Below, piece by piece: positions 2,022-11,539 of a DNA stretch of 11,677 bases; within the stretch, counting starts at the first letter, position 1; each line of letters begins with the position of its first letter. Below the pieces are notes generated by a model. The model did not search any database. It saw only the letters and a program-made list of their open reading frames with translations, and was not told where the DNA came from. The stretch is from the NCBI GenBank assembly GCA_963663405.2, contig CAXXSM010000048.1, positions 1 through 11,677 on the forward strand, given 5' to 3'. The position numbers and the translations under genes are program-made. This stretch comes from a bacterium. Lineage in GTDB: Bacteria; Hinthialibacterota; Hinthialibacteria; Hinthialibacterales; Hinthialibacteraceae.

Positions 2022-2101
2022 TGCTATGTTAGTTTACATGTATATGAAAACATATCTTCAACTTAAAACCTTCTATGAGTGCAGAAATCTCGGGGGATAA
2101 C

Positions 2102-5100
2102 ATGGTTCAGCAGGTTAGGTTCCTTAATTGTTTAGCAATAATTTGGGGTTTGTTCGTTCTCTGTGCCGCTTTTCATTTGGATTCGTATGCGGCTGGTGGT
2201 GACATTGCTGAACGCTCCGGCGCGAAAAATCCTTATGGTTCAACCAGCCGATGGACCATGTTTGCGGATGACGAACTTGCCGTTCTTTCATTTGGTGAAT
2301 CGAACGACGATGAACGGCTGAAGAGTTCCAAACTCTATATCAATAATGGAGATGACCAAATAAGCAGTACTGATGGACACTCAGCCTCAATATCCCTTGA
2401 TGATGAGGATATTCGAAATCGGGGAAAATATGCAGCCGCATCCGGACGATTTATTACAGCGAATGATGAAGTCGTTGCCGCTCATGTGAAAGACGATGCC
2501 GGTTGGCAACTCAGCTTTTTTGATAACAATTTGCTGCGTATCCGCCATAGGGATTTTGATTATCCCGATGAGGCGTTTCTCGACCTTGTGGTGGGAGATT
2601 TCATTGCCAAGGTAAACGATGATGGTCAGTTTGAAGATGAAATCATCGTTACGCATGTTTATGTGGAACAGGATAGTCCAAATAGTGTTTTGACTATCGG
2701 GGTTTATAATCAGCATCTGGAAACCCTAATTCAATATCCGGATATTGAAATTGAAACAGATTCCGATTCTCCCCCAATAGGTATTCAAGTTGAAAAAGGG
2801 GATTTCAACAACGATGGTATATTGGACTTTGTTGTCGTAATTCCTTTTAAAGAACAATCATTGCGTTTTTATGCTTTTACTTTTAAAGACGACTTTAGCG
2901 AAATTGTTCAGTTGGGTTTTCACACACATACCGAAGAAACTCGTGTTCACGTGTATCGCTTTGATGTGACGTCGGGAGATTTTAACGGCGACGCAATTGA
3001 CGATATTGCGGTCAACTATGAAAACCTTCGTATTTATTCGATGCTTGATCCTGTGTCAAATACTGCCACAGACCGTTTTGAATTTCAGAGTTACATAGAG
3101 CCGCCATTTTCACTAGGTCCAATTCGAATTGCATCAGGTTTGTTTTATTATGATCCCGAAAACAATTTTGATACGGCGCGGCGGCAAATCGCACTTGTTT
3201 ATTTTGATCCTCTAAATAATAACGAAATCGACTATAGGATTTCTCTTTATCGCGTGTTAAAAGACTTTAGCATAAAAGAAATTTCTAAAGTCCAGCCTCA
3301 TATTTATACAAATGGTTGTGCCGGATTCAACGATTTTCAATTAACTGCAGGCAATTTTGACACGAGTGAAGAAGAGGGTATGCCTCCTGGCATGTCGGAA
3401 TTGGCGTTGATTGTGGCTGACTGCGGAGCCACACAGGCGTTTTTCCTGAAGATCGCGCAAGATAAATGGGTAAGCCGTTATATGTTTCACGTTTTTAGCC
3501 ATGAAACATTATCATTGGCGACAGTGCCTTATGACTCGGATGGCGATGCGCTAAAACTCGGCGCTCCGGCGCATATCGTTGTCGAGAACTTTGTTTCTCT
3601 CGATACGGCCATGCAGGAGCCCCCAAAGCATGTGGATTTCCTCCCCAAAGATCCAACGCAGTGGATCGATGACAAGGATCAGTGGGAGGTGGTCAATATC
3701 AGTGCTTACCCTGAATTCTATGTCAAATATGTGAATGAGGACGGCACGAGCGGCAGTGTTACGGAATCTGAGCATTCAACGCGAAGTTGGATTTGGTCAT
3801 GGGCCGCATCGGTGCAAGCGACCTATGAACTGAAATTGGGAGGAGAAAAGGAGGGAATCTCTGCAAACCTCGGATATAAAATGTCCGGCTCAAACACAAA
3901 AACAAAAGAGAGTTGGGATAAACACTACACATCGACAACCAATGAAATTTCGATTGAAAGCAATGACGATGACATGCTCGAATGCGCTTTTCAACTAATC
4001 GACATTTGGCGCTATCCGATTCTCAATCAAAAAGATGAAGACGACGATAATCTATTCCAGGATGTCTTTCTGCCCTACACAAAAAAGAAATATCTGGGCA
4101 ACGGTCTTGGAAAGGAATTCTACCAACCTCGGCATGTGAATCATAACCTGCTCACATACCCGCGCTATACGGATTCATTCCCGAGCGATATTGGTGAGTA
4201 TACGGTCATCCAAAAAGACAATGACGGTGACAAAATATCAGAAACTCAAATGAAGAAGACCTGGAATGAAATCCGGGAAGTTCGATATTCGGCGAATACC
4301 GTGGATGAAGCCGTAACTTTTGATGATGTCGAAAGCAGCGGATATTCAATCTCGCATGAACATTCGCTCGATCATAGCGTGGATGTTGGTGTTAAGATTT
4401 ATGCTGAAGCCACTGTTGGTATCGAAACGGCAAAGGCGGAAGCAGCTGCAAACGCGCATGCTGAGCGAAATCATCACTGGGGTGATAGCAAGATCAAAAG
4501 CTATGAAGAAGAAGATTCAAAAAGCGTCAAGGTCTATCAGCCCGGATACCTTTTTGCCGATATCGGCTGGGAATATAACTATTATCCTGCGATTTATGTT
4601 GCTTCAAAAGGCGGCGGATGGAAGTCGGCTTTTGCCGTTGACTTTGATCAATTGGATTTCCGTTGGTGGAACTATTACGGTTCGCGTCCTGATCCGGCGC
4701 TTGGATTACCCTATCGGCTTGAAGCCTCTCAAAACACCAAGTCATCTTTTGTTGCCTGGAATCTGAATGAAGAGAACAGCCGTATGATTATGCGCGGCTT
4801 CTTCCTTTATGAAAAGAACTCCGACTCGGATGAGAAGATTCTTCACTCCGGCGTGGGTATTGAAGAAGGCGATATTATTGAGGCCGCCGCCCGTATCTAT
4901 AATTTATCTCTTTCTCAAGAAACGGGATCTTTCGATGTGCGTTTTGAGGCGCAGATGCTTGATACCCGGACTGGAATGGAAGTTGATGACGAACGCGAAA
5001 TCATCGGTACGGCAACGGTTCAACATTTGGATCCGCTTGAAATGCAGTTGGTTTCTGTTGATTGGGATACGACAGGCTTTGGGTTGGCCGAAAGCAGTTT

Positions 5101-5734
5101 CAATACATGGCGTATCTATGTGATCGTTGATCCCGATAACCAAGTTTTCAATGAAATCCACGAATGGAAAGATGAAGCCCATGTGGGTGTGGACGGTTGG
5201 ACAGATGATGAGGGGCGGCTTTATCATGGAAATAACGAAGGCTATTTCCCTCGCAATAATGGATATTTTGTCGGCAAAATGCTGAATCAGAAATCCAAGG
5301 CCGCTACGCTTCCTGATGCGTCAAATCATCCAATTGTGCCGCATGCCGCGCTGCATGAAGAGTCATTGGCGATTGAGTATGAGCAGGGCATTGTGACCGG
5401 TGGGGAAATACGAGTCCCACTTGGCGGCAAATACCGACTGCGGACACATATTACCTTCGATGGTTCCTATCACCCCAAAACCGGCTATATCATGTTCCAC
5501 GATCAGAATCCGGAAAGCACGAATGAGGTGTTTTCGGTAGAGATCGTCCGTGGACTCATGACCGATAACTACATTTGGACAACATGGACGCCAAAAGAAG
5601 CCGGAGAATACGAACTTTGGGCGGTTTTTTTGGAGCATTCGGATGATCCCAAACAAGGCGATGCTCAGGATTTCTTACAGGTCACTGTTTATGATCCTGA
5701 GGACACGAATGTCGCGGACTGGCCTTTGCATTGA
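2102..5734 (+). CDS. Large secreted FG-GAP/VCBS-repeat protein with central Ser/Thr-rich beta-hairpin region, CARDB/Ig-like C-terminal domains and a short conserved C-terminal tail
   Basis: Long ORF; ATG 2102 is preferred over 2075 because GGGGGA (2092-2097) precedes it and a Sec-type signal peptide follows (MVQQVRFLNCLAIIWGLFVLCAAFHLDSYA). FG-GAP-like motifs are GDFNNDGILDFVV, GDFNGDAIDDIAV, VGDF...EDEIIV, ASGLF, AGNFD and DSDGD. The CARDB-like segment is ARIYN...FDVRF...VSVDWDT...IYVIVDPDNQVFNEIHE...NN. The protein ends DTNVADWPLH*. Confidence 0.85.
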   Translation: MVQQVRFLNCLAIIWGLFVLCAAFHLDSYAAGGDIAERSGAKNPYGSTSRWTMFADDELAVLSFGESNDDERLKSSKLYINNGDDQISSTDGHSASISLDDEDIRNRGKYAAASGRFITANDEVVAAHVKDDAGWQLSFFDNNLLRIRHRDFDYPDEAFLDLVVGDFIAKVNDDGQFEDEIIVTHVYVEQDSPNSVLTIGVYNQHLETLIQYPDIEIETDSDSPPIGIQVEKGDFNNDGILDFVVVIPFKEQSLRFYAFTFKDDFSEIVQLGFHTHTEETRVHVYRFDVTSGDFNGDAIDDIAVNYENLRIYSMLDPVSNTATDRFEFQSYIEPPFSLGPIRIASGLFYYDPENNFDTARRQIALVYFDPLNNNEIDYRISLYRVLKDFSIKEISKVQPHIYTNGCAGFNDFQLTAGNFDTSEEEGMPPGMSELALIVADCGATQAFFLKIAQDKWVSRYMFHVFSHETLSLATVPYDSDGDALKLGAPAHIVVENFVSLDTAMQEPPKHVDFLPKDPTQWIDDKDQWEVVNISAYPEFYVKYVNEDGTSGSVTESEHSTRSWIWSWAASVQATYELKLGGEKEGISANLGYKMSGSNTKTKESWDKHYTSTTNEISIESNDDDMLECAFQLIDIWRYPILNQKDEDDDNLFQDVFLPYTKKKYLGNGLGKEFYQPRHVNHNLLTYPRYTDSFPSDIGEYTVIQKDNDGDKISETQMKKTWNEIREVRYSANTVDEAVTFDDVESSGYSISHEHSLDHSVDVGVKIYAEATVGIETAKAEAAANAHAERNHHWGDSKIKSYEEEDSKSVKVYQPGYLFADIGWEYNYYPAIYVASKGGGWKSAFAVDFDQLDFRWWNYYGSRPDPALGLPYRLEASQNTKSSFVAWNLNEENSRMIMRGFFLYEKNSDSDEKILHSGVGIEEGDIIEAAARIYNLSLSQETGSFDVRFEAQMLDTRTGMEVDDEREIIGTATVQHLDPLEMQLVSVDWDTTGFGLAESSFNTWRIYVIVDPDNQVFNEIHEWKDEAHVGVDGWTDDEGRLYHGNNEGYFPRNNGYFVGKMLNQKSKAATLPDASNHPIVPHAALHEESLAIEYEQGIVTGGEIRVPLGGKYRLRTHITFDGSYHPKTGYIMFHDQNPESTNEVFSVEIVRGLMTDNYIWTTWTPKEAGEYELWAVFLEHSDDPKQGDAQDFLQVTVYDPEDTNVADWPLH

Positions 5735-5735
5735 T

Positions 5736-5761
5736 AACCGGATGTCAGATGCATCTCGGTT
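5736..5761. terminator. Hairpin between convergent genes (possible weak bidirectional terminator)
   Basis: AACCG-GATG (5736-5744) pairs with CATC-T-CGGTT (5752-5761) in the 53-bp gap between two convergent stops. There is no clear U-tract on either side. Confidence 0.35.
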
Positions 5762-5787
5762 CATGACACGAATTGGTGGCTAAAGTA

Positions 5788-7149
5788 CTATTCGGTCGGC
5801 TGGTTTATCTTGCGGACATACGCATCGATATCGAACTTGCGGCGCAGCCCTGCATCATTCATATAGCGTACGATGCCGAAAATATCCCGCTCGGTCCAAG
5901 GTCTGTCGTGTTTCCCGAAACACCAGGCCACACCGGCAAATGAATTCGGATCGCGGCCGTCAAGAAAGTATTTGTTGTTGAAATAAAGAACTCTATTGAA
6001 TGCGGTTTGCGGATTGGGGCTCCATTCGATTATTTTTTTCCCCCAATACATCCGCATGTAATTGGCCATCTTACCGGTGACACGCATCTCACGCATCGCC
6101 GCATTCCAATAGGGATCGTGTGTCTGAGCGGTTTCTAGCCGGCTTCGTGTATAAATATAGTCGCGTGGATCTTTTGCATGTCGAGCCAGGGTGCTTCTGA
6201 CCCAACCCGGCAGGCAAAGATAAGAATCATAATTCTCATTATAATAGACAAAGTTGATACTTAACTCGCGGCGGACGATTAGCTCTTCCAGAAAAGCATC
6301 TTTTGACGGCTTTTTCTTTCCTCGTGCCTTCTTTACTTCTAGCGCAACAGTCAATGGCGACATCTGCCCGAAGTGAAGATAGGGACTAAGATTCGATTGA
6401 AGCCCCAAACTCGGGTCGTTACGCGAATCCGCATAATCGTTTAATTTCGAGTTAATAAAATCAGCAAGCCATTGTTTCGCCTGTCGTGTGCCTCCCTTGT
6501 AAAAAGATTGGGCCGGGGCACTTCGGTCAATCTTTAACTTTCTGAGAATTCCCTCGATATCCTGCAAATCAAGACCTTCGGAGATCAATCCCAGTGACTT
6601 TTTGTTTACTTTGCGTTGTTGTAGCGGCACAAGAAAACGGTCCTGCTGTTTAGCGAGTTTGCGGCGCAATGTTGCCGCAGAATATTCTTCTTTATGAGAA
6701 GCTGTTTCGACCGGGACGATAATATCGGATTCTACTTCATAAACAGGGCAGGGAGCCTTATGTGCAACGGCCCGGCGCCACTTCCTTTGTATGCGTGTGT
6801 ATCCGCTGTCTGTTACGACAACGCAAGCCTGCTCCGCGAATTTCAATGCGGCGCGATCAGGTGAGTCGTGCAGGATGCTGAACTCAATGCCTCGCTTATG
6901 TAAGGCATGCTGAGTCTCCGCCAATCCCTCGAGCATGAAAGCGTAATGACGAAGGTTGGCATCGGGGAAATCATCGGTTAGGCCAAAAATGGCAACCACC
7001 GGGACTGCTTTCTGATTTGCCATATCGATAGCAAATTCCAGGGCGTGATTATCCTCGGCTCGTTGTGAAGCCTGCATCCAATAGAGGACATATTGACCTG
7101 CTTTTTCCTGGCACTGATTCAGAAGATGAATTCGTTCGGTATGGATCAT
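5788..7149 (-). CDS. phrB: Deoxyribodipyrimidine photo-lyase, class II CPD photolyase
   Basis: Class II signatures are VLYWMQASQRAEDNHALEFA, SNLSPYLHFGQMS, FLEELIVRRELSINF, THDPYWNAAM, GKMANYMRMYWGKKIIEWS and LDGRDPNSFAGVAWCFGKHDRPWTERDIFGIVRYM. The likely start is ATG at 7149 (MIHTERI), with a GAGGA Shine-Dalgarno 7 nt upstream, rather than TTG at 7182. Confidence 0.95.
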   Translation of the reverse strand: MIHTERIHLLNQCQEKAGQYVLYWMQASQRAEDNHALEFAIDMANQKAVPVVAIFGLTDDFPDANLRHYAFMLEGLAETQHALHKRGIEFSILHDSPDRAALKFAEQACVVVTDSGYTRIQRKWRRAVAHKAPCPVYEVESDIIVPVETASHKEEYSAATLRRKLAKQQDRFLVPLQQRKVNKKSLGLISEGLDLQDIEGILRKLKIDRSAPAQSFYKGGTRQAKQWLADFINSKLNDYADSRNDPSLGLQSNLSPYLHFGQMSPLTVALEVKKARGKKKPSKDAFLEELIVRRELSINFVYYNENYDSYLCLPGWVRSTLARHAKDPRDYIYTRSRLETAQTHDPYWNAAMREMRVTGKMANYMRMYWGKKIIEWSPNPQTAFNRVLYFNNKYFLDGRDPNSFAGVAWCFGKHDRPWTERDIFGIVRYMNDAGLRRKFDIDAYVRKINQPTE

Positions 7150-7318
7150 GGCCGTTTCCTCAGTTCTCTTTGCTATTGACAAAATTAAACCTAGAACAAG
7201 GCCATGGCTAGTTCACCCGCTCCAATGAATCAATTCATCATCAATGACAACATCAAACGATTCTTGCCGAAATTATAAGTGCCGCTTGGACTGAAAATCA
7301 GCGCGGAAATATCCGTTT

Positions 7319-9505
7319 CTAGCGTAGTGACCAATCACCGACGCCGGTTTCGGATGTCTGCAGGATTTCCACCTCATCCAATAACACACCCCAACCGAAA
7401 TTCCCAACGGTCTCGAAACGGATTCGGTAGGATTCGCTCAAATCCGGTAATTCCAGAACTTGATGTATCCATTCGGTCACATTACTCATGTATTCCGCAC
7501 CGGGCAACAAAATCCATTCTCCATCCGGTGAACTCTGATAATACACACGCAACTCATCCTGGTCGTCTCCCCAAGCGGGTTGAGCGTAGTAGAATGACAG
7601 ATAAGCCGTATCGAATTGACTCAGACAGAAAGATTGAGATGTGGCATAAGAAAAAATACCGATTTCTTCTGTGTAATCATCTTCAAATTCGTACCGTGGG
7701 TCAAATGAAAAAATACTGTTTTGCTTTCCGTTAAATGCCGAACTTGGATTTTGTTTCGGCATTAAATTACCATTGGCGTTATACCAACTATAACTATGAT
7801 CGAAATACATTTCGCCGTTATGTGAATAAGAAATTCGAAAATGTGGATTGTCCTCGTTCGCTTCAAATCCGTTGCGAAAGATATTTTTTGATGATTTAAA
7901 TATTGCCTCATCCGAACTTGCGGAAGCGATCCCATTGTTCATCGTCCATCTGTAATAATAAGTGGTATCGGGAAGAAGGTTGTCGATATCCAAAGTGATT
8001 TCTTGATCGCGCAGTAATGGCGAAACCGATTTGATATTTCCGTATTCAGGTGTTTCACCGTATTCGAGATATACATTTGTTGGCAGATTGTTGGTTTCAA
8101 ACGCGCCGATAAATGTCGTCTGTAAATAGTTATCCCGTACAACAGGACGATCCGTTTCGACCGAAGGCTCCTTAAGCGTGAATGAATCCGGCAAGCCTTC
8201 AATATCATCCTCACCATCTTCCTGATTGACGATAACCAGACGATAGTCATACGTGTGTCCGGAAACCAATCCGTTAACGTTTTCTGTTGCGCGGTAAATG
8301 CTTTGGCCGCTTGAATAGGAGATTGTCTTCGTTTCTGTTTTCTGATTGAACGTTTCATCCTTTCCGTATTCAAAATAATAAGAAACGGCGGCTCCGCCCG
8401 TTTTGACATAACCCGAGAAGGTTGCATAATCCTCGCCGGCATCTTCTACTCCCGTTGTATATGCGTGGATAGACGATTCATCCAAATACAACACACAAGG
8501 ATACAAATTAACTCTGGCCGATTTGTAGCGGATGCGCATATACCCATCCTCACCCCATTCGGTTCCCCAACTGTTTCGCAGTATCCAGCAGCCGCCCCCG
8601 CCTTCCGGTGGATGATCATCCCACCCGACCAGAGAGATGGCGTGGTTCGCAGATGAATAATAATAAGGGGTGGCATTCGGCTCCGTACACGTATCCTCAT
8701 AAACGCCGCCTGCGTAATTATAAAACGCATTGGTGACATAGATGGCGGTAACGACACATCCATATTTCAGTATGGCCGCTTTGATCGCATCGGTTGTGTC
8801 TTCATCATTGGGAGTGAATACACGAAACCAATTGTCCACATAAATACGAGGATAAGATTTAGATTTTTCACTATAGTCATCGCCCGGGTAGATGTCCTGA
8901 TATGGAAAGTCTTTTTCAAAACAAGTTCCTTCCAATCCGGTTCCTAAACCGAACTTGGTAAGCGCTGTCAAGTTGTAAAAATCTACGTTGGCCCCAATCC
9001 ATCCTGAGAAATATTCGGAGTAATCATCAACTTGCCCGAGAGTCCAAGACACATACGATTCGGATAGATCGATGCAGTTTTCATCCGTTAAATTTGCATG
9101 GATGTTGAAAACCGATTCCGCCGCAGCGTTACCCGCGAACATTCCGCAGGTTCCTGCTTGCATCTGATCGCGTATTGGGCCGATATAGGATTTCCCATCG
9201 ATGTTACGCCAATCGAATGATTCAGGCAATTCTTCGGGAATGTCTATTGTTCTGATATTGAGCGATTTGCTTTTTAAATTGGTTCCACTTTCGACTGGAA
9301 AGAGTCCTGGAACGAAGTAACTTCTGCCCACTTCTGTTTCGTAATCGCGGACTTGAAATGAATATCCATTTTGTTTGATTTTTTCGCGAATTGTGCGGAT
9401 GTCGTCATCCGCTTCAAAAGGCATAAGTGTTTGTGACCAAGACAAGCCGACAGCAAACATCACTAACAAACATAGAGCATAACGAATCCAAGTATTCATA
9501 TTCAC
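7319..9505 (-). CDS. Secreted papain-family (C1A) cysteine peptidase with two FN3-like modules, a MAM/cleaved-adhesin-like domain and a short conserved C-terminal tail
   Basis: Signal peptide (WIRYALCLLVMFAVGLSWS) and short pro-region, then LPESFDWR, oxyanion Gln and catalytic Cys in PIRDQMQAGTC, DLSE, catalytic His in NHAISLVGW, and catalytic Asn in WILRNSWGTEWGEDGYMRI. Two repeats follow (YYFEYG...GLVSGHTYDYR; VYLEYG...NLLPDTTYYYR), then QDELRVYY...W...GWGVLLDEVEI. The GTG start has AAGGA upstream. The protein ends ETGVGDWSLR*. Confidence 0.9.
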   Translation of the reverse strand: MNMNTWIRYALCLLVMFAVGLSWSQTLMPFEADDDIRTIREKIKQNGYSFQVRDYETEVGRSYFVPGLFPVESGTNLKSKSLNIRTIDIPEELPESFDWRNIDGKSYIGPIRDQMQAGTCGMFAGNAAAESVFNIHANLTDENCIDLSESYVSWTLGQVDDYSEYFSGWIGANVDFYNLTALTKFGLGTGLEGTCFEKDFPYQDIYPGDDYSEKSKSYPRIYVDNWFRVFTPNDEDTTDAIKAAILKYGCVVTAIYVTNAFYNYAGGVYEDTCTEPNATPYYYSSANHAISLVGWDDHPPEGGGGCWILRNSWGTEWGEDGYMRIRYKSARVNLYPCVLYLDESSIHAYTTGVEDAGEDYATFSGYVKTGGAAVSYYFEYGKDETFNQKTETKTISYSSGQSIYRATENVNGLVSGHTYDYRLVIVNQEDGEDDIEGLPDSFTLKEPSVETDRPVVRDNYLQTTFIGAFETNNLPTNVYLEYGETPEYGNIKSVSPLLRDQEITLDIDNLLPDTTYYYRWTMNNGIASASSDEAIFKSSKNIFRNGFEANEDNPHFRISYSHNGEMYFDHSYSWYNANGNLMPKQNPSSAFNGKQNSIFSFDPRYEFEDDYTEEIGIFSYATSQSFCLSQFDTAYLSFYYAQPAWGDDQDELRVYYQSSPDGEWILLPGAEYMSNVTEWIHQVLELPDLSESYRIRFETVGNFGWGVLLDEVEILQTSETGVGDWSLR

Positions 9506-10909: not shown

Positions 10910-11539
10910 ATGCAAAAGTACAGAGGTTTTACGCTTATTGAGTTGCTGATTGTTGTTGCAATCATTGGAATCTTGGCGGCTATCGCCGTCCCTAATTTTC
11001 TGAACGCGCAAATCCGGGCGAAAGTTGCACGTAGCATTTCTGATTTGCGCAATCTTGATGACCAGAATTTTCTCCGTAAGAATGATACAGGGCGTTGGTT
11101 GATTGATGGAAATGACTCCGGCGATCCGATCTCTAAAGAGAAATGCACTCTGGAAAATACATCAATGTGGGGTGTACCCCCCACACAAGCTGGGATTAAA
11201 GACCTTATTGGTGATTTTCGGTACTACAGCGGCCACATTTGGCAGCAACTTACAACACCTATTAATTATATGGGCTCTATCCCCACTGAACCGTTTTCAC
11301 GCGGGATGTTTTATGGTTTTGACGACATTAACTGCTCGAATGGGATTGGAATGGTCTATTTTATGACTGCATCAGGACCTGATAAGGATATCGGCGAGTG
11401 GCGCGGTCCGACAGGCATGGCCGTGCTTTACGAGCCGTCGAATGGCCTTAATTCCGATGGAGATATCACGCGTTGCCGTATTCTGAAAGGCGACGGCGGT
11501 GAACTGGTCAATCGACTCGGTTACCGTATCTGCAGCTAA
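10910..11539 (+). CDS. Prepilin-type N-terminal cleavage/methylation domain protein (type IV pilin / T2SS pseudopilin-like)
   Basis: Class III signal peptide MQKYRG|FTLIELLIVVAIIGILAAIAVPNF with basic leader, Gly-1, Phe+1, Glu+5 and Pro22. The globular domain contains LTTPINY...PTEPF, SGPDKD and YEPSNGLNSDGDI, plus four Cys. AAGGGA lies upstream of the ATG. Confidence 0.92.
   Translation: MQKYRGFTLIELLIVVAIIGILAAIAVPNFLNAQIRAKVARSISDLRNLDDQNFLRKNDTGRWLIDGNDSGDPISKEKCTLENTSMWGVPPTQAGIKDLIGDFRYYSGHIWQQLTTPINYMGSIPTEPFSRGMFYGFDDINCSNGIGMVYFMTASGPDKDIGEWRGPTGMAVLYEPSNGLNSDGDITRCRILKGDGGELVNRLGYRICS

Follow-up and report, generated by a model that had tools for sequence, protein, structure and literature searches.

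An apparently undescribed ten-residue tryptophan tail at the C-terminus of many unrelated proteins in uncultured bacterial phyla

The last approximately ten residues of PilC/PilY1, which include a tryptophan, are described as completing the beta-sheet of PilK/PilX in the available portions of two papers (PMC12918778, PMC13711793), and the first of these portions has GspK of the type II secretion system (T2SS) supplying its own last strand (PMC12918778). Type IX secretion (T9SS; PorU, PorV) makes use of a folded C-terminal domain (CTD) of 40–82 residues (TIGR04183, PF18962). Tripartite sorting signals, e.g. LPXTG, PEP-CTERM, GlyGly-CTERM, MYXO-CTERM and IPTL-CTERM, are short C-terminal signatures with a membrane helix and a basic cluster (definition from the available part of 10.1101/2023.06.07.544157), and dockerin type I is a terminal module with a calcium loop. 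The subject here is a tail of ten residues with a conserved tryptophan that terminates two proteins encoded in an 11,677-nucleotide stretch of bacterial DNA (contig CAXXSM010000048.1, termed the window). It is a conserved peptide added after the last domain of many unrelated proteins.

The two tails of the window (Table 1) were found in an initial sequence-only reading, and both sequences read as given there. The carriers, an FG-GAP/VCBS-repeat protein and a papain-family (C1A) peptidase, have no Pfam family in common. Both N-termini resemble Sec signal peptides as judged by eye.

The frequency of the tail was determined in the source genome, G000 (8.44 Mb, 82% complete), with open reading frames (ORFs) from a custom caller. 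Of the 5,514 ORFs with at least 150 aa, 252 have tryptophan at position −4; at each of the other 29 positions it is found in 52–124. A weight matrix, which was seeded and iterated on this genome and scored at true C-termini against random pseudo-termini, detects the tail at the C-terminus of 180 of 6,126 ORFs compared with a mean of 0.2 for the pseudo-termini. The motif is thus not confined to the two window proteins. With a score of 12 or above there are 139 terminal tryptophan positions but only 2 among 37,019 internal ones. About 20 more variants, recognized by eye, fall under the matrix threshold. One of the two high-scoring internal copies (C106:68413-70716) is followed by approximately 115 more residues.

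The consensus is [TVS]-[SPA]-[VI]-x-[DN]-W-x-[LIV]-[YFH]-stop. The tryptophan, whose presence in these counts is fixed by the search itself, is at position −4 in 144 of the 180 tails, at −5 in 31 and further away in 5. It is preceded by D (32%) or N (22%). The second residue after it is hydrophobic in 172 of 180 tails, the third is Y, F or H in 169, and the first is charged in 59. Two details of the initial description do not survive the larger sample. An acidic residue at −10 is present in only 35 of the 144 tails with tryptophan at −4, and the last core residue, described as H or R, is Y in 55%, F in 21%, H in 18% and R in 3%. The distance from tryptophan to stop is 3–6 residues in all 180 tails, which leaves no room for a transmembrane helix, and there is no basic cluster at the end.

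A signal-peptide-like start, by a hydrophobicity heuristic, is displayed by 133 of the 180 tail ORFs and by 1,470 of 5,946 others (odds ratio 8.6), an enrichment of the tail among ORFs with such starts. When the tails are removed, the 180 ORFs fall into 77 unrelated groups. Among 40 sampled cargo proteins 15 have a Pfam match at 1e-6, i.e. LamG, CBM9, CotH, LTD, LRR, beta-helix and NHL, and 25 have none. No PilC/PilY1 family is present among these 40 and the two window proteins. An AlphaFold2 model of the lone tail (pTM 0.17, one short helix) was uninformative, and an ESM Atlas query with the tail gave one match at 0.77, below the useful level.

Comparison with homologues shows that the tail is an appended module. 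It is kept in 11 of the 120 listed homologues of the C1A peptidase; in the rest the C-terminus is a membrane sorting tail, a dockerin or another module, where the membrane tails presumably belong to the sorting families suggested by their motifs. In one C1A homologue (P0012) the sequence S-L-N-E-W-G-L, which is near the tail core, is found before a membrane helix. The FG-GAP protein has the tail in 9 of 71 homologues and several of the others stop directly after the last strand. Homologues of another cargo, a CotH protein, match the tail in 57 of 99 cases, and three have PF18962 and two dockerin; in one of them (P0287) the T9SS domain begins at the position where the tail would sit. The possibility that the tail is the last strand of the fold was rejected because four FG-GAP homologues (P0163, P0174, P0184 and P0187) end before the tail position; the tail is outside the last fold. 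A set of 42 tails gave no match to a sorting model of NCBIfam or Pfam at E 10. IPTL-CTERM was considered as a relative, and there is resemblance only, with no model match.

The spread was measured with a stop-anchored DNA pattern in which the last codon also admits TGG, and a genome passes with at least five matches and twice the control. The pattern passes in 34 of 35 genomes of the class, which is probably Hinthialibacterota; the remaining genome (G028) has no match. The nearest named homologues are Ca. Hinthialibacter and “Omnitrophota” records, which fits the link to Hinthialibacterota that the sequence-only reading had suggested. A stricter pattern gives a maximum of 9 matches in any of 366 genomes outside the class. 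Long ORFs with true tails are present in two of the top four outside genomes (G064 and G383), which are Sumerlaeota by cluster names. Of 75 Sumerlaeota genomes, 39 pass with the strict pattern, and with a variant pattern (run on 71) the number is 57 of 75; the totals are 556 vs 98 for the strict and 354 vs 20 for the variant pattern. A third phylum (G183 and G337) also bears the tail. Three of nine matches in G183 end signal-peptide proteins, the other six not being tails, and in the sampled DNA of G337 4 of 39 candidate secreted ORFs match. The matches in G117, G248, G396 and G225 are in short frames and were discarded as noise. A looser pattern gave background levels in all three genomes tried.

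G183 and G337 (L159, L160 and L161) also display a second short tail near the stop, P-V-E-L-x-x-F-x-x-E, with 14 and 7 pattern matches, respectively, some of them overlapping. It has at most 5 matches in the other 339 genomes searched and none in G000.

The tail was initially proposed to be a compact, lineage-specific export tag. It is compact, restricted in lineage and carried by probably exported proteins, but its range extends beyond one phylum. It appears undescribed: no description was found in the literature covered, most subscription journals being outside the coverage, and the word “C-terminal” does not occur in the available part of a Sumerlaeota genome paper (PMC8092238).

Of the known systems, the PilC/PilY1 tail (and that of MshQ) appears closest in its manner of working, though not in its carriers. 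Both tails consist of about ten residues at the extreme C-terminus with no membrane helix, and have a tryptophan followed by a hydrophobic residue; in PilC/PilY1 one or two charged residues are between them. The PilC/PilY1 tail binds the K pilin, and filament assembly requires it. The PilC/PilY1 tails, as described in the sources cited, also run counter to the statement in the sequence-only reading that known C-terminal signals all have a transmembrane helix or a large domain. The differences are that the tail described here occurs on ORFs of 77 unrelated groups, whereas the known one is borne by one to three adhesins (beta-propeller proteins in the case of PilC/PilY1), that it has an aromatic last residue, an upstream T-x-V and a mostly uncharged residue after the tryptophan, and that its candidate acceptor is about 2,150 aa long.

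Related to possible function, we tentatively propose that the tail is an address tag for export or display, by which cargo would dock at a type IV filament's tip. After Sec export of the cargo, a giant K-type minor pilin at this tip would take up the tail as a donor beta-strand. The filament would carry the tailed protein out via a secretin, and the cargo would then stay on the tip for surface display or be released. Strand donation of the PilC/PilY1 type predicts a K pilin without a last strand, and a K-type pilin that stops before this strand is present in G000. The genome has three Pfam-supported GspK genes, each of which extends past the penultimate strand; one of these ends in I-R-Y-W-K-V-I-R, with the hydrophobic/tryptophan spacing of the tail. 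Contig C143 bears a fourth cluster, in which three prepilin genes are followed by a giant K-type gene without Glu5. This gene is found as two ORFs (1,114 and 1,072 aa) in G000 and as a single ORF of 2,153 aa in locus L276. In the alignment, its product ends directly after the penultimate strand, i.e. before the strand of ordinary GspK proteins. This end is covered by twelve of 13 representatives, the other one being an internal fragment, and all twelve stop there or no more than 6 residues away. The PilY1-type ending [ST]-W-[RK]-[EQD] is in no G000 ORF of 400 aa or more.

Other pilin genes are also associated with the tail. G000 has 110 pilin-like genes of one family, with a near-invariant N-terminal helix and heads that are about 31% identical, and its other filament loci include three T2SS-like clusters and one Tad cluster. 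A pilin-family gene is within 500 bp of 18 of the 180 tail genes and of 45 of the 1,282 signal-peptide-like genes without a tail (odds ratio 3.1, p 5e-4), and in the DNA sampled from the three phyla the family has a density of 14–19 per Mb. Eight secretin loci in G000 are possible exits for cargo. A model of the pilin family (pLDDT 62) gave no PDB match at E 0.001.

Several observations speak against tip docking. Immediately downstream of the giant K pilin, at the usual place of PilY1/MshQ, is a gene that could encode a dedicated strand donor; its product is conserved, 427–439 aa long, with a signal-peptide-like start and a conserved end free of tryptophan (G000 C143:46431-47750; L276:11339-12622). 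The K identity is from the N-terminus, gene order and weak scores (8.7 and 6.4 bits) against a three-sequence profile, and that the strand is missing was judged by aligning short ends and not by a structure. Three distant homologues of the giant K pilin (E 3e-8 to 4e-5) have no taxon, and thus cannot be assigned to Sumerlaeota or the third phylum. The residue after the tryptophan is charged in only 59 of 180 tails, and 162 of the 180 tail genes are more than 500 bp away from any pilin gene; the adjacent family pilins keep Glu5 and are thus not K-type. T2SS payloads are said to use no strand complementation, according to the available text of PMC12918778. In addition, the three phyla may be kin, so that genes common to them are not independent evidence.

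A different explanation, which we consider somewhat unlikely, is that the tail is the substrate of a PorU-like sortase acting without the T9SS translocon. In this case a conserved pair of giant C25 cysteine peptidases would cleave near T-x-[VI] and link the new end to a surface glycan or lipid. Like the tail, the T9SS CTD is borne at the C-terminus by many unrelated Sec-type proteins, whose cargo domains are the same, and in the CotH homologue P0287 it stands exactly at the tail position. The CTD is a folded domain, the tail has only ten residues, and none of the 42 tails matches its models. TIGR04183 had no match in G000, in a search without a positive control.

The C25 genes are present in all 35 class genomes and in 73 of 75 Sumerlaeota. 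The long and short forms are common to both phyla, every copy listed has the GHG histidine and the cysteine, and neither form itself ends in the tail. The best PDB match is PorU (6za2, E 2.7e-10). Against the PorU model NF033707 the pair scores 160–232 bits, which is under the cut-off of 420. In a tree of 51 C25 catalytic domains, from which about 10 fetched copies missed by the motif rule were left out, the long and short forms are on one side (27 rows, 94/98), apart from the PorU-type rows, but the branch is not starred and includes one long-branch outsider. An ESM Atlas query with the long form gave C25 clusters only, mostly without taxa. A profile of the short form ranked G337 and G183 first outside both phyla, and tryptophan tails, predicted beforehand, were then found there. 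The profile nevertheless matches in 105 of the 366 outside genomes, nearly all of which are tail-less. G028 has matches to the pair yet no tail by three patterns, and G466 and G468 have C25 but few tails.

With respect to the cut site, known PorU sites favor a small residue followed by Ile in the available part of PMC11969387. Counted from the tryptophan, the tails have G, S or A at −4 in 96 of 180 and V, I or L at −3 in 163 of 180, but proline is at −4 in 37, and PorU cleavage is described as sequence-independent in the available part of PMC4804311. When a 33-residue tail (alignment of 42) was modelled in complex with the two C25 forms' catalytic domains, the score of 0.02 (mark 0.32) gave no answer. 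Genus g218 is without the C25 pair, and its relaxed tails lack T-x-V-x-D, as expected if the pair reads this part. Against this, in the single-contig genome G232, which is without the pair, six CotH/LamG-type proteins end in relaxed x-[WFL]-x-[IVL]-[YF] tails, three of them with tryptophan. The distal half is thus kept without the peptidase, which favors tip docking. A two-part tail, with a distal half for export and a proximal half for cutting, fits G232, which is one genome. The upstream T-x-V half may also be a cut site of a PorU-like peptidase, the two readings being compatible. G232 also encodes giant secreted proteins of 1,700 to more than 5,800 aa (L229, L232, L233, L238 and L241) with a near-identical C-terminal domain of at least 60 residues, possibly a different sorting domain in the genus without the C25 pair.

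A sortase would need cargo brought to the surface, and SprA was not found. The SprA model TIGR04189 has no match in G000, which is 82% complete, or in four other tail-bearing genomes, while the control G106 matched. The SprA-linked PF14349 is in none of the 35 class genomes, although no control matched, and a crude composition scan showed no large outer-membrane barrel in place of SprA. G000 does have PorV-like barrels beside the PorU-like peptidases. Their PorV-family score is 61 bits against a cut-off of 90. They were set aside as readers of the tail because the barrel gene follows another partner (10 or more of 12 loci), namely a proline/threonine-linker gene whose product has a C-terminal domain of its own, and because one query found the barrels in 26 of 35 genomes. 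Barrel and partner look like a separate anchoring system. In G000 the barrel gene comes after a cohesin/dockerin/Pro-Thr-linker protein at C125:18409-22661 (L001), C35:12861-16918 (L002) and L021-L032, and the partner's C-terminal domain of about 280 aa is common to about 12 G000 proteins.

It is unlikely that the tail is a non-covalent docking peptide for some other receptor, e.g. a scaffold at the surface or the pilin heads of the 110-member family, and does the job of the dockerin-like ends of sister lineages. Dockerin type I, like the tail, is a terminal module on unrelated exported proteins, with a complementary distribution; it differs in that the tail has no calcium loop, is one sixth the length and shows no sequence likeness. 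Counts of dockerin loops and tails are opposed over the 35 genomes (Spearman −0.46; G028 31 vs 0, G033 49 vs 8), which suggests that the two can replace each other in function, though it points to no partner. Two orders account for the correlation, kin are not independent, and for the other orders n = 9 and p is 0.06. CotH homologues bear dockerin instead of the tail, and cohesin domains are present in G000, but only three cohesin-like proteins were found and no receptor was identified. A GspG-like end is present in 88 of the 110 family pilins, and only 3 of these 88 have the tryptophan that follows it in both GspG-type proteins of G000; the pilin model is of low confidence. Genomes of the sister orders (G028, G026, G029, G033 and G034) have 30–49 dockerin-like calcium loops each, and the carriers can end in a tryptophan-containing helix.

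The tripartite signals share with the tail a short signature and many copies per genome, and they stand in its place in homologues of other lineages, but the tail lacks their membrane helix and basic cluster. Exosortase (PF09721) was not found, while the control matched; sortase, rhombosortase and CPBP families were not searched for.

That the tail has no sorting role, and is a stabilizing cap or turnover tag of periplasmic proteins, is highly improbable: 47 of 180 tail ORFs are not called secreted by the crude heuristic, though many of these by eye have signal peptides or truncated starts, and against such a role only 133 of the 1,603 signal-peptide-like proteins of G000 bear the tail, it replaces known export or anchoring modules in homologues, and the cargo displays surface-type domains (LamG, CBM9, CotH, LRR, beta-helix).

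The remaining genes of the window are less directly related to the tail. The true start of the FG-GAP protein is probably a few codons downstream of 2075. The photolyase, and an ordinary asparagine synthase-like amidotransferase at positions 2-1864, are without the tail, as the sequence-only reading had stated. The pilin-like gene is associated with tail genes and has a candidate role.

Table 1. Features of the window related to the tryptophan tail
Feature	Position	Strand	Sequence or basis
Tryptophan tail and stop of FG-GAP protein	5702..5734	+	D-T-N-V-A-D-W-P-L-H-stop; matrix score 17.1
Cargo 1: 1,219-aa FG-GAP/VCBS-repeat protein, signal-peptide-like start	2075..5734	+	ORF, Pfam, homologues
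Tryptophan tail and stop of C1A peptidase	7319..7351	-	E-T-G-V-G-D-W-S-L-R-stop; matrix score 13.2
Cargo 2: 728-aa papain-family (C1A) peptidase with fibronectin-like and MAM-like domains	7319..9505	-	
Member of 110-gene pilin-like family, members tending to be near tail genes	10910..11539	+	
DNA photolyase between both tails; without tail, outside the system	5788..7182	-	

The tail is a real, multi-phylum and apparently undescribed C-terminal tag, and its best and most testable candidate reader is the giant K pilin that lacks a last strand. To our knowledge, the choice of cargo by type II and type IV filaments is a long-standing question, as the substrates show no signal in their linear sequence. 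With a linear tag of ten residues, present on some 180 proteins of a single genome, and a named candidate acceptor, this question can be tested with peptides and one domain. If sorting is by the PorU-like pair, PorU-type sorting would be working without the T9SS translocon. In the broadest version, which we regard as rather improbable, the three phyla would use a PilY1-style strand as a general secretion code, where the tail is loaded on the giant K pilin and passes the secretin, and the PorU-like pair then cuts and anchors the cargo. Type IV filament export and T9SS-style attachment would thereby be combined in one hybrid system, and no shorter transferable export signal would be known in diderm bacteria. 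A tag of ten residues for export or display could also be of practical use. If tip docking is correct, the tail would define which proteins are at the surface or secreted in three or more uncultured phyla.

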